DNA from: Promethearchaeati archaeon | GTDB lineage: Archaea > Asgardarchaeota > Heimdallarchaeia > Heimdallarchaeales > Heimdallarchaeaceae | Assembly: GCA_013166775.1 (NCBI GenBank) | Contig: JABLTJ010000041.1 | Span: 1-23,634, forward strand | DNA length: 23,634 bases | Direction of reading: 5' to 3' | Shown: one piece after another, positions 1,571 through 1,694 of the stretch | Layout of the letters: the number at the start of each line of letters is the position of its first letter | Numbering within the stretch: the first letter of the stretch is position 1 | Program-made: the position numbers and the translations under genes | The notes under the pieces: model-generated | Database searches by the model: none | What the model saw: only the letters and a program-made list of their open reading frames with translations | Told to the model about the DNA's origin: nothing

Positions 1571-1694
1571 TGGTCGGGCTTCCGTGATTTGAACACGGGA
1601 CCGCTCGGTCTCTACCGGCTGACACCTTGATCATTGTTCACAAGGGCGTCTGTTGACTACAGCCGAGTGCTCTAAGCCACTGAGCTAAAGCCCG
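1571..1694 (-). tRNA. tRNA-Tyr(GTA) with 47-nt intron at 37/38 and encoded CCA
   Basis: Reverse complement folds as acceptor CGGGCTT/AAGCCCG with A73 and CCA, D stem GCTC/GAGC, anticodon stem CTCGG/CCGAG with loop CT-GTA-G^A, 5-nt variable loop, T arm CCGTG-TTCAAAT-CACGG. Spliced length 77 nt. C1-G72 and the short variable loop are archaeal/eukaryal Tyr features. Confidence 0.97.
1610..1656 (-). other. tRNA intron (47 nt) with relaxed bulge-helix-bulge splice motif and internal K-loop hairpin
   Basis: Removing it restores a 7-nt anticodon loop. C32-U33-G34-U35 can pair with intron GUAG (4-bp central helix, two G-U pairs) flanked by 3-nt bulges. Confidence 0.9.

Follow-up and report, generated by a model that had tools for sequence, protein, structure and literature searches.

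The persistence of introns in tRNA genes is a long-standing question, and tRNA-Tyr is the classic case of a tRNA in which a modification, the pseudouridine at position 35 (Psi35) of eukaryotes, needs the intron. In the euryarchaea Haloferax volcanii and Pyrococcus, the intron of pre-tRNA-Trp encodes an L7Ae-binding box C/D guide aimed at its own anticodon arm. In eukaryotic pre-tRNA-Tyr, Psi35 formation by Pus7 is intron-dependent (cited in PMC2651775). Psi35 of tRNA-Tyr in the Sulfolobales is made by separate, classic H/ACA sRNAs that pair with the anticodon stem-loop and the intron (PMC2651775). Guides of this kind are Sso1, Sto1, Sac1, Mse2 and Ape7 of Sulfolobales and Aeropyrum, and sR115 of S. 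islandicus (PMC2651775, PMC11077068).

In archaeal H/ACA RNPs, L7Ae on a K-turn, Nop10 and Cbf5 are arranged along the upper stem; a re-analysis of guides from Pyrococcus and Pyrobaculum found that in productive ones ten layers are stacked between the pocket-closing pair and the second G.A pair, both included, and that an ANA box lies 14-15 nt downstream (PMC4652768). Atypical guides have also been described: sR203-210 of Pyrobaculum and sR109, sR136, sR148 and sR563 of S. islandicus (PMC4652768, PMC11077068). Four of the six H/ACA RNAs of S. islandicus have neither lower stem nor ACA and bind L7Ae and Cbf5-Nop10. These guides work in cells as well as in vitro, where they require L7Ae and Gar1, and Pyrococcus proteins accept them; moreover, Cbf5 pseudouridylates sR109 and sR563 themselves, in cis, at uridines of the 5' part that fold back on the 3' guide (PMC11077068).

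The window analysed here, 23,634 nucleotides of a contig from a Heimdallarchaeaceae genome, includes a tRNA-Tyr(GUA) gene, matched by the Rfam tRNA model RF00005 at 1574-1694 of the minus strand with 53.6 bits and a 50-nt insertion in the anticodon loop. ARAGORN, with or without its intron mode, makes no call for this gene, which was found with Rfam and custom covariance models instead. As read from the sequence, the tRNA has a C1-G72 pair, A73 and an encoded CCA. A genome-wide check of the assembly (3.85 Mb, 88.7% complete) found no second tRNA-Tyr gene. The neighbouring genes are ordinary and encode a radical-SAM protein, a class I methyltransferase, a desulfoferrodoxin and an aldehyde:ferredoxin oxidoreductase. 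The convergent methyltransferase ORF (809-1567) ends with a stop codon, at 1567, that lies 3 nt from the CCA end of the tRNA at 1571, leaving hardly any space for separate terminators. Weak Rfam matches to box C/D snoRNAs (E 0.4-7) at 1455-1518 of the plus strand, beginning CUGAUGAUGA, fall within this ORF and are probably due to chance. Coordinates of the tRNA-Tyr gene and of the predicted elements of its intron are given in Table 1.

Table 1. Features of the tRNA-Tyr(GUA) gene and its intron, with positions in the window
Feature	Positions	Strand	Basis
tRNA-Tyr(GUA) gene with intron and encoded CCA	1571..1694	-	Rfam RF00005, sequence, genome-wide check
5' exon, tRNA nt 1-37, starting with C1; anticodon G34 U35 A36 at 1660-1658	1657..1694	-	sequence, cloverleaf alignment
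Putative target arm 1, tRNA nt 28-34 (UCGGCUG), pairing with the 3' guide	1660..1666	-	helix 1, 87.9% of cells paired
U35 (1659) and A36 (1658), the sole bases left unpaired at the three-way junction, with U35 as proposed target	1658..1659	-	
Putative target arm 2, G37 and the first two intron bases (GUC), containing the 5' splice site	1655..1657	-	helix 2
Intron, 47 nt, after G37 at the canonical 37/38 site	1610..1656	-	sequence; conserved BHB register
Putative 5' guide GAC, pairing with G37-U-C across the 4-nt loop AACA (1654-1651)	1648..1650	-	middle-pair covariation
5' strand of the 10-layer GA stem, GCCCUUGUGA, ending in box-D'-like GUGA	1638..1647	-	sequence, published rule
K-loop apical loop ACAAU	1633..1637	-	U before the 3' GA in 46/48 relatives
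3' strand of the GA stem, GAUCAAGG[U]GU, with one bulged U and box-C'-like UGAUC	1622..1632	-	sequence
Putative 3' guide CAGCCGG, adjoining the closing pair of the stem	1615..1621	-	complementarity, alignment
Intron tail; GUAG (1615-1612) forms the 4-bp BHB central helix with C32-U35, and AG/A is the 3' bulge	1610..1615	-	
3' exon, nt 38-73	1574..1609	-	sequence
Encoded CCA	1571-1573	-	sequence

The intron is an ordinary BHB-spliced tRNA intron. It shows the 4-bp central helix and the two 3-nt bulges expected of an archaeal BHB tRNA intron; two of the four central pairs are G.U, and the bulges, AG/U and AG/A (slashes marking the cuts), carry the splice sites. Over the 63 Asgard sequences compared below, the central helix forms 3.7 of its 4 pairs in register as against 0.8-2.2 when slid, and the outer helix has 0-2 bp in most of them.

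The body of the intron forms a hairpin with the tip cuuGUGA-ACAAU-GAUCaag, in which A.G, G.A, U.U and G-C pairs can be read. These correspond to the tandem sheared G.A/A.G pairs, the 3b.3n pair and the Watson-Crick pair of K-turns and K-loops, the last being G-C here and C-G in the usual form. Judged by its sequence the hairpin is a K-loop, a predicted L7Ae-binding motif, and its G and A are invariant among the aligned K-loop sequences. The stem is best drawn as GCCCUUGUGA / GAUCAAGG[U]GU, with ten layers and a single bulged U. A different register, in which the hairpin is extended by GAC/GUC, was rejected for the A x C mismatch that it creates in most members of the genus. In the register adopted, the variable base of the 3' strand (U or C) becomes the bulge, and the G or A of layer 1 always stands opposite U across the variation within the genus.

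The sequences flanking this hairpin are complementary to the anticodon arm. On the 3' side, CAGCCGG can form six Watson-Crick pairs and one G.U with nt 28-34, ending beside U35 and displacing the 3' strand of the anticodon stem; on the 5' side, GAC can pair with G37-U-C. In the pocket fold that results, the K-loop hairpin sits with its 10-layer stem atop a three-way junction. In the whole assembly, no site other than the pre-tRNA-Tyr itself offers both guide arms at least 5+3 exactly complementary bases. The BHB and pocket folds are mutually exclusive, since the BHB needs the anticodon stem and a free G37, whereas the pocket pairs nt 28-31 and G37 elsewhere. The pocket is the unconstrained minimum free energy (MFE) fold in several relatives, one of them of the same genus, and in the present gene it lies 2.4 kcal/mol above the anticodon-stem fold, a figure in which the non-canonical pairs of the K-loop and bound protein do not count. 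Free MFE folding of the whole precursor gave neither cloverleaf nor pocket and was discarded as uninformative.

Related precursors were gathered by BLAST in 61 relatives and with a precursor covariance model applied to 151 genomes of the phylum. The comparison set comprises 63 distinct Asgard pre-tRNA-Tyr anticodon/intron regions from 15 families, and 48 of these regions, in 8 families, have a K motif in the intron. The 48 share one design: a K-loop or K-turn, a stem of about ten layers, a 3' flank that pairs from G34 downward, and a covarying mini-helix with G37. The motif varies in the manner expected of a genuine K-turn: it is GUGA/GAUC here and CUGA/GAUG or UUGA/GAUG in other relatives, U.U may be replaced by U-A, and the pair adjoining U.U varies among relatives (GC, 23; UA, 4; AU, 2; CG, 2). 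The U before the 3' GA is kept in 46 of the 48. K-loops and K-turns interconvert, the full K-turn having an inserted C-stem hairpin and a 3-nt bulge, and position 2n is sometimes A, a variant described as L7Ae-binding in PMC3985660. A spacing of 8 nt separates the 3' GA from the partner of G34 in 14 sequences; in 31 it is 9 nt and in 3 it is 11 nt. These values imply a stem of about ten layers, exactly ten in this gene.

Both flank pairings recur in these relatives. The base that follows the stem immediately on its 3' side is the partner of G34, and those after it pair with U33, C32, G31, G30 and usually C29, so that contiguous guide pairing spans 4-8 bp (7 bp here). Compensatory events are seen at nt 29 (C-G to U-A), nt 28 (U.G, U-A, C-G, G-C) and nt 31 (G-C to A-U); beyond nt 29 the guide pairs are imperfect in many relatives, and nt 28 is unpaired in 16 of 45. 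The mini-helix joins G37 and the two bases that open the intron to the triplet immediately 5' of the stem, across a loop of 3-6 nt whose sequence drifts freely. At its middle position UA stands in 19 sequences, AU in 15 and GC in 6, and this position is never unpaired. The recurrence of the motif and of both flank pairings in 48 of 63 precursors, with compensatory changes, is more than chance would give.

Covariation was counted on 45 sequences aligned with a second model that carries the pocket structure, a fitting that favours that structure: 84.8% of cells hold standard pairs, against 18-55% when the 3' partners are shifted by 1-3 columns; the score for covariation is 0.245, compared with 0.03-0.07 after such a shift; in nine pairs both bases have changed; and none of 500 shuffles reaches the observed values. 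Free of any structure fitting, RNAalifold on a plain MAFFT alignment of 12 same-family sequences predicts the stem and the helix between nt 28-34 and the 3' flank, not the anticodon stem. On a gap-rich alignment of the 45 sequences it predicts the G37 mini-helix alone. We conclude that the predicted K-loop/pocket structure is real, conserved and covarying. The initial annotation had read from this one gene a K-loop with G-C, U.U, G.A and A.G pairs, a G-C/C-G swap that compensates relative to CUGA/GAUG, CAGCCGG as a guide abutting U35, a possible pairing of GAC with G37-U-C, and a pocket leaving U35-A36 unpaired as an alternative to the BHB. All of these readings survive comparison. The K-loop is present, conserved and covarying; the swap is found across relatives; CAGCCGG recurs; the GAC helix covaries in its middle pair; the pocket is conserved with covariation in the alignments; and the two folds, each conserved, exclude one another. 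The alignment of related introns that it had suggested thus bears out the K-loop and guide in 48 of 63 sequences.

Several same-genus precursors have a second tRNA-Tyr intron, with the K-loop intron in the anticodon loop unchanged. In L013, L016 and L043 this second intron, of about 30 nt, lies in the D-loop; in L011, L014, L017-L019, L040-L042 and L044 it measures 30-38 nt and lies in the T-loop after 'GUUCAAA'.

Measured against known H/ACA guides, the intron hairpin has exactly the ten-layer GA stem, with its one bulged U, and a bipartite pocket formed by 7 bp with nt 28-34 and 3 bp between GAC and G37-U-C, which leaves U35 and A36 unpaired; guide and target segments meet in cis instead of in trans. 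An ANA/ACA box at 14-15 nt to the 3' side of the closing pair is absent, and such boxes show no enrichment at 14-16 nt in the 48 relatives, which agrees with the proviso of the initial annotation that a clean box was wanting. A lower stem of 7-9 bp is absent as well, and is topologically impossible because the 5' arm enters the substrate directly through a 4-nt loop. The two missing elements are those normally held by the PUA domain of Cbf5, and without them this is not a canonical H/ACA RNA. The features present (a K-turn-type hairpin of about ten layers with guide flanks and neither lower stem nor ACA) are those of atypical H/ACA-like guides, so that the element belongs, at best, to the atypical ACA-less kind. 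Thus the H/ACA-type assignment made at first stands for the K-loop, the 10-layer stem and the U35-A36 pocket, but not for the lower stem or the ANA box at 14-15 nt. The Sulfolobales precedent invoked with it, as a motif overlapping the intron, is actually a separate trans-acting sRNA that pairs with exon and intron (PMC2651775).

The likeness to those classic Psi35 sRNAs is nonetheless close: they address the same target U, pair with the same segments (5' of U35, and G37 with intron bases), leave U35 and A36 free and bear a K-turn on the upper stem. Unlike the present element, however, they occur where aPus7 is defective; here the guide would lie within the target's own intron, lacks lower stem and ACA, and coexists with a Pus7 that looks intact. 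The atypical guides of Pyrobaculum and S. islandicus share the K-turn or K-loop hairpin, the roughly ten layers, the guide flanks and the want of lower stem and ACA, but they are free sRNAs with mainly rRNA targets, whereas here guide and target would be one transcript, the 5' arm is just 3 bp closed by a 4-nt loop, and splicing removes the element. The box C/D intron of pre-tRNA-Trp is likewise an L7Ae-binding guide module in a tRNA intron that competes with the BHB fold; it differs in its fibrillarin/Nop5 RNP, in directing 2'-O-methylation, in its boxes and in its tRNA. In the eukaryotic Pus7 reaction, too, a tRNA-Tyr intron shapes the anticodon region for modification of U35 before splicing, but with a stand-alone enzyme and without K-turn or guide geometry. 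A literature search found no published description of a self-guide K-loop in a tRNA-Tyr intron.

The genome encodes all four proteins of the RNP, Cbf5, L7Ae (G000:C1:204790-205149, its closest named homologues being from Heimdallarchaeaceae), Nop10 and Gar1. The initial annotation had also raised the matter of aPus7/TruD: the enzyme is present with its catalytic motifs intact, namely the basic residue of motif IIIa and the D-K-R of motif II, as aligned to M. mazei TruD. No exact-sequence cluster match was found for this Pus7. Among Asgard archaea, 144 of 151 genomes have Pus7, both carriers of the K motif and genomes that lack it, and no correlation of the motif with loss or decay of Pus7 was seen in these 151 genomes. 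In the Sulfolobales the Psi35 guide coincides with a crippled Pus7 (PMC2651775); with an intact enzyme, that logic of rescue does not apply here. A stand-alone enzyme could make Psi35, and the case for needing a guide is the weaker for it. Possession of the gene is not decisive as to the source of Psi35, however, since Pus7 of S. islandicus is still required for Psi13.

We put at roughly one in two the probability that the tRNA-Tyr intron is an atypical H/ACA guide that would act in cis on U35, recruiting Cbf5 to form Psi35. U35 and A36 lie where H/ACA guides hold the target U and its 3' neighbour. L7Ae would bind the K-loop of the intron, and Nop10-Cbf5, possibly with Gar1, would dock at the distance set by the 10-layer stem and convert U35 to pseudouridine. 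Once the RNP had departed, the RNA would refold to the anticodon-stem/BHB fold, freeing the 5' splice site buried in the mini-helix, and the intron could then be removed. The case for such a cis guide, which we consider evenly poised, is made by the 10-layer spacing, the covariation, the ACA-less precedents with their cis reactions of the proposed type, the trans-acting Psi35 guides, the four RNP proteins and the unique two-arm match. On the other side stand the missing ANA box and lower stem, the intact Pus7, the 7 of 15 families without a K motif, an alignment fitted to its model, and the imperfect pairing past nt 29.

The main rival, to which we give a clearly smaller but appreciable chance, keeps the modification and dispenses with Cbf5: the pocket fold would be an L7Ae-stabilised scaffold that presents U35-A36 to stand-alone Pus7, an archaeal counterpart of the intron-dependent reaction of eukaryotes. 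It fits the intact Pus7 of this genome and the near universality of the enzyme in the phylum, as well as the context G-C-U-G-U-A-G around U35, which agrees with the Pus7 consensus quoted in PMC2651775, and the intron dependence of eukaryotic Psi35 (PMC2651775). Pus7 of P. abyssi, however, requires no intron (PMC2651775), and a constant spacing of about ten layers from K-turn to target is characteristic of the L7Ae-Nop10-Cbf5 ruler and not of Pus7. As a further point against the scaffold, we know of no case in which Pus7 is linked to L7Ae or to K-turns. A purely regulatory role is less probable again. Here the pocket would time splicing or maturation, the buried 5' splice site and melted anticodon stem delaying the BHB while L7Ae locks the pocket until some other step is done, for instance end processing of this C1-initiated tRNA. 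Two mutually exclusive conserved folds of similar energy, one of which base-pairs the 5' splice site, are what such a timer would show, but it leaves unexplained why exactly U35-A36 are free, why the guide abuts the stem and why about ten layers are kept.

Two further readings would direct the intron to other sites. Excised archaeal tRNA introns can be stable guide RNAs, as is the box C/D intron of Haloferax tRNA-Trp, and the excised, possibly circularised, tRNA-Tyr intron might similarly guide in trans on another target such as rRNA, its complementarity to the anticodon arm being merely a requirement of the BHB. We regard this as improbable: within the assembly both arms find a match of at least 5+3 only in the precursor, covariation links the 5' arm to the opening bases of the intron itself, and the BHB uses a different, separate segment, GUAG. 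Least credible of all is a box C/D-type (C'/D') half-guide for 2'-O-methylation in the anticodon arm, on the model of the euryarchaeal pre-tRNA-Trp intron. GUGA and UGAUC do resemble D' and C' boxes, and L7Ae also nucleates C/D RNPs; yet a terminal C/D pair is missing, the C'-like box has no CUGA 10-12 nt downstream, and the sequences flanking the boxes, which in a C/D guide would include a single-stranded guide ending 5 nt upstream of box D or D', are locked in the 10-layer stem.

If the cis-guide reading is correct, this would be the first H/ACA-type guide inside its own substrate, and the range of the atypical ACA-less guides, so far Crenarchaeota, would come to include Asgard archaea. The Psi35 task would then be carried out, in the archaea most closely related to eukaryotes, by an RNA guide built into the intron. 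We advance more tentatively the fuller proposal that pre-tRNA-Tyr of the Heimdall group and of many other Asgard archaea is a self-contained device, in which the ACA-less cis guide would recruit L7Ae-Cbf5 for Psi35, the pocket would hide the 5' splice site and splicing would follow only after the RNP leaves; modification would thereby be coupled to splicing through an RNA conformational switch. Such a device would be an RNA-guided forerunner of, or alternative to, the intron-dependent Psi35 pathway of eukaryotes, and there would be a selective reason for retention of the tRNA-Tyr intron. Should the guide reading be wrong, a conserved L7Ae-type K-turn in a pre-tRNA with a covarying alternative fold still needs another explanation.

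The K motif is missing from 7 of the 15 Asgard families, so the intron device is dispensable. A search of two K-less families for trans-acting guides to U35, using the patterns TGA-N8-9-CAGTCC-N8-9-ACA and TGA-N8-9-CAGCCG-N8-9-ACA, gave matches at control frequency, the recurrent ones lying in coding sequence. Stand-alone K-loop hairpins with ACA were likewise sought in the source genome, which yielded only AT-rich chance matches. In six precursors without the motif (L062:1529-1584, L072, L100, L101, L071 and L063) a segment of the intron, for example CAGCGGGCGCUC, complements about 12 nt of nt 22-34. As these are the 3' strand of the D-stem and the 5' strand of the anticodon stem, the segment could unfold half of the tRNA.

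Outside the Asgard archaea, searches with the pocket model gave two clear cases in the phylum to which a Bathyarchaeia MAG belongs (151 genomes) and none in those of an Archaeoglobaceae MAG and a Methanobacterium MAG (151 genomes each), counts that are lower bounds given the limited sensitivity of the model. Both cases, L192 (G268:C1:298910-298986, minus strand) and L195 (G193:C17:4006-4076, plus strand), are introns of tRNA-Tyr in which a 10-layer stem bears a K motif and is accompanied by a CAGCCG guide beside G34; the design is thus not limited to Asgard archaea.

Two other tRNA introns were noted in passing. In the source genome, a tRNA with a long variable arm (G000:C1:11939-12055, minus strand), called Met(cat) by ARAGORN and Leu(CAA) by eye, has a 32-nt anticodon intron containing CUGA...GAUGA; from these boxes it is possibly a second K-loop-bearing intron of this genome. 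In the intron of a tRNA-Trp(CCA) of the same genus (L106; G019:C63:73-220, minus strand), a hairpin precedes UGAAUAGCC, a complement of the 5' strand of this tRNA's own anticodon stem, which makes it a further intron that folds back on its anticodon arm.
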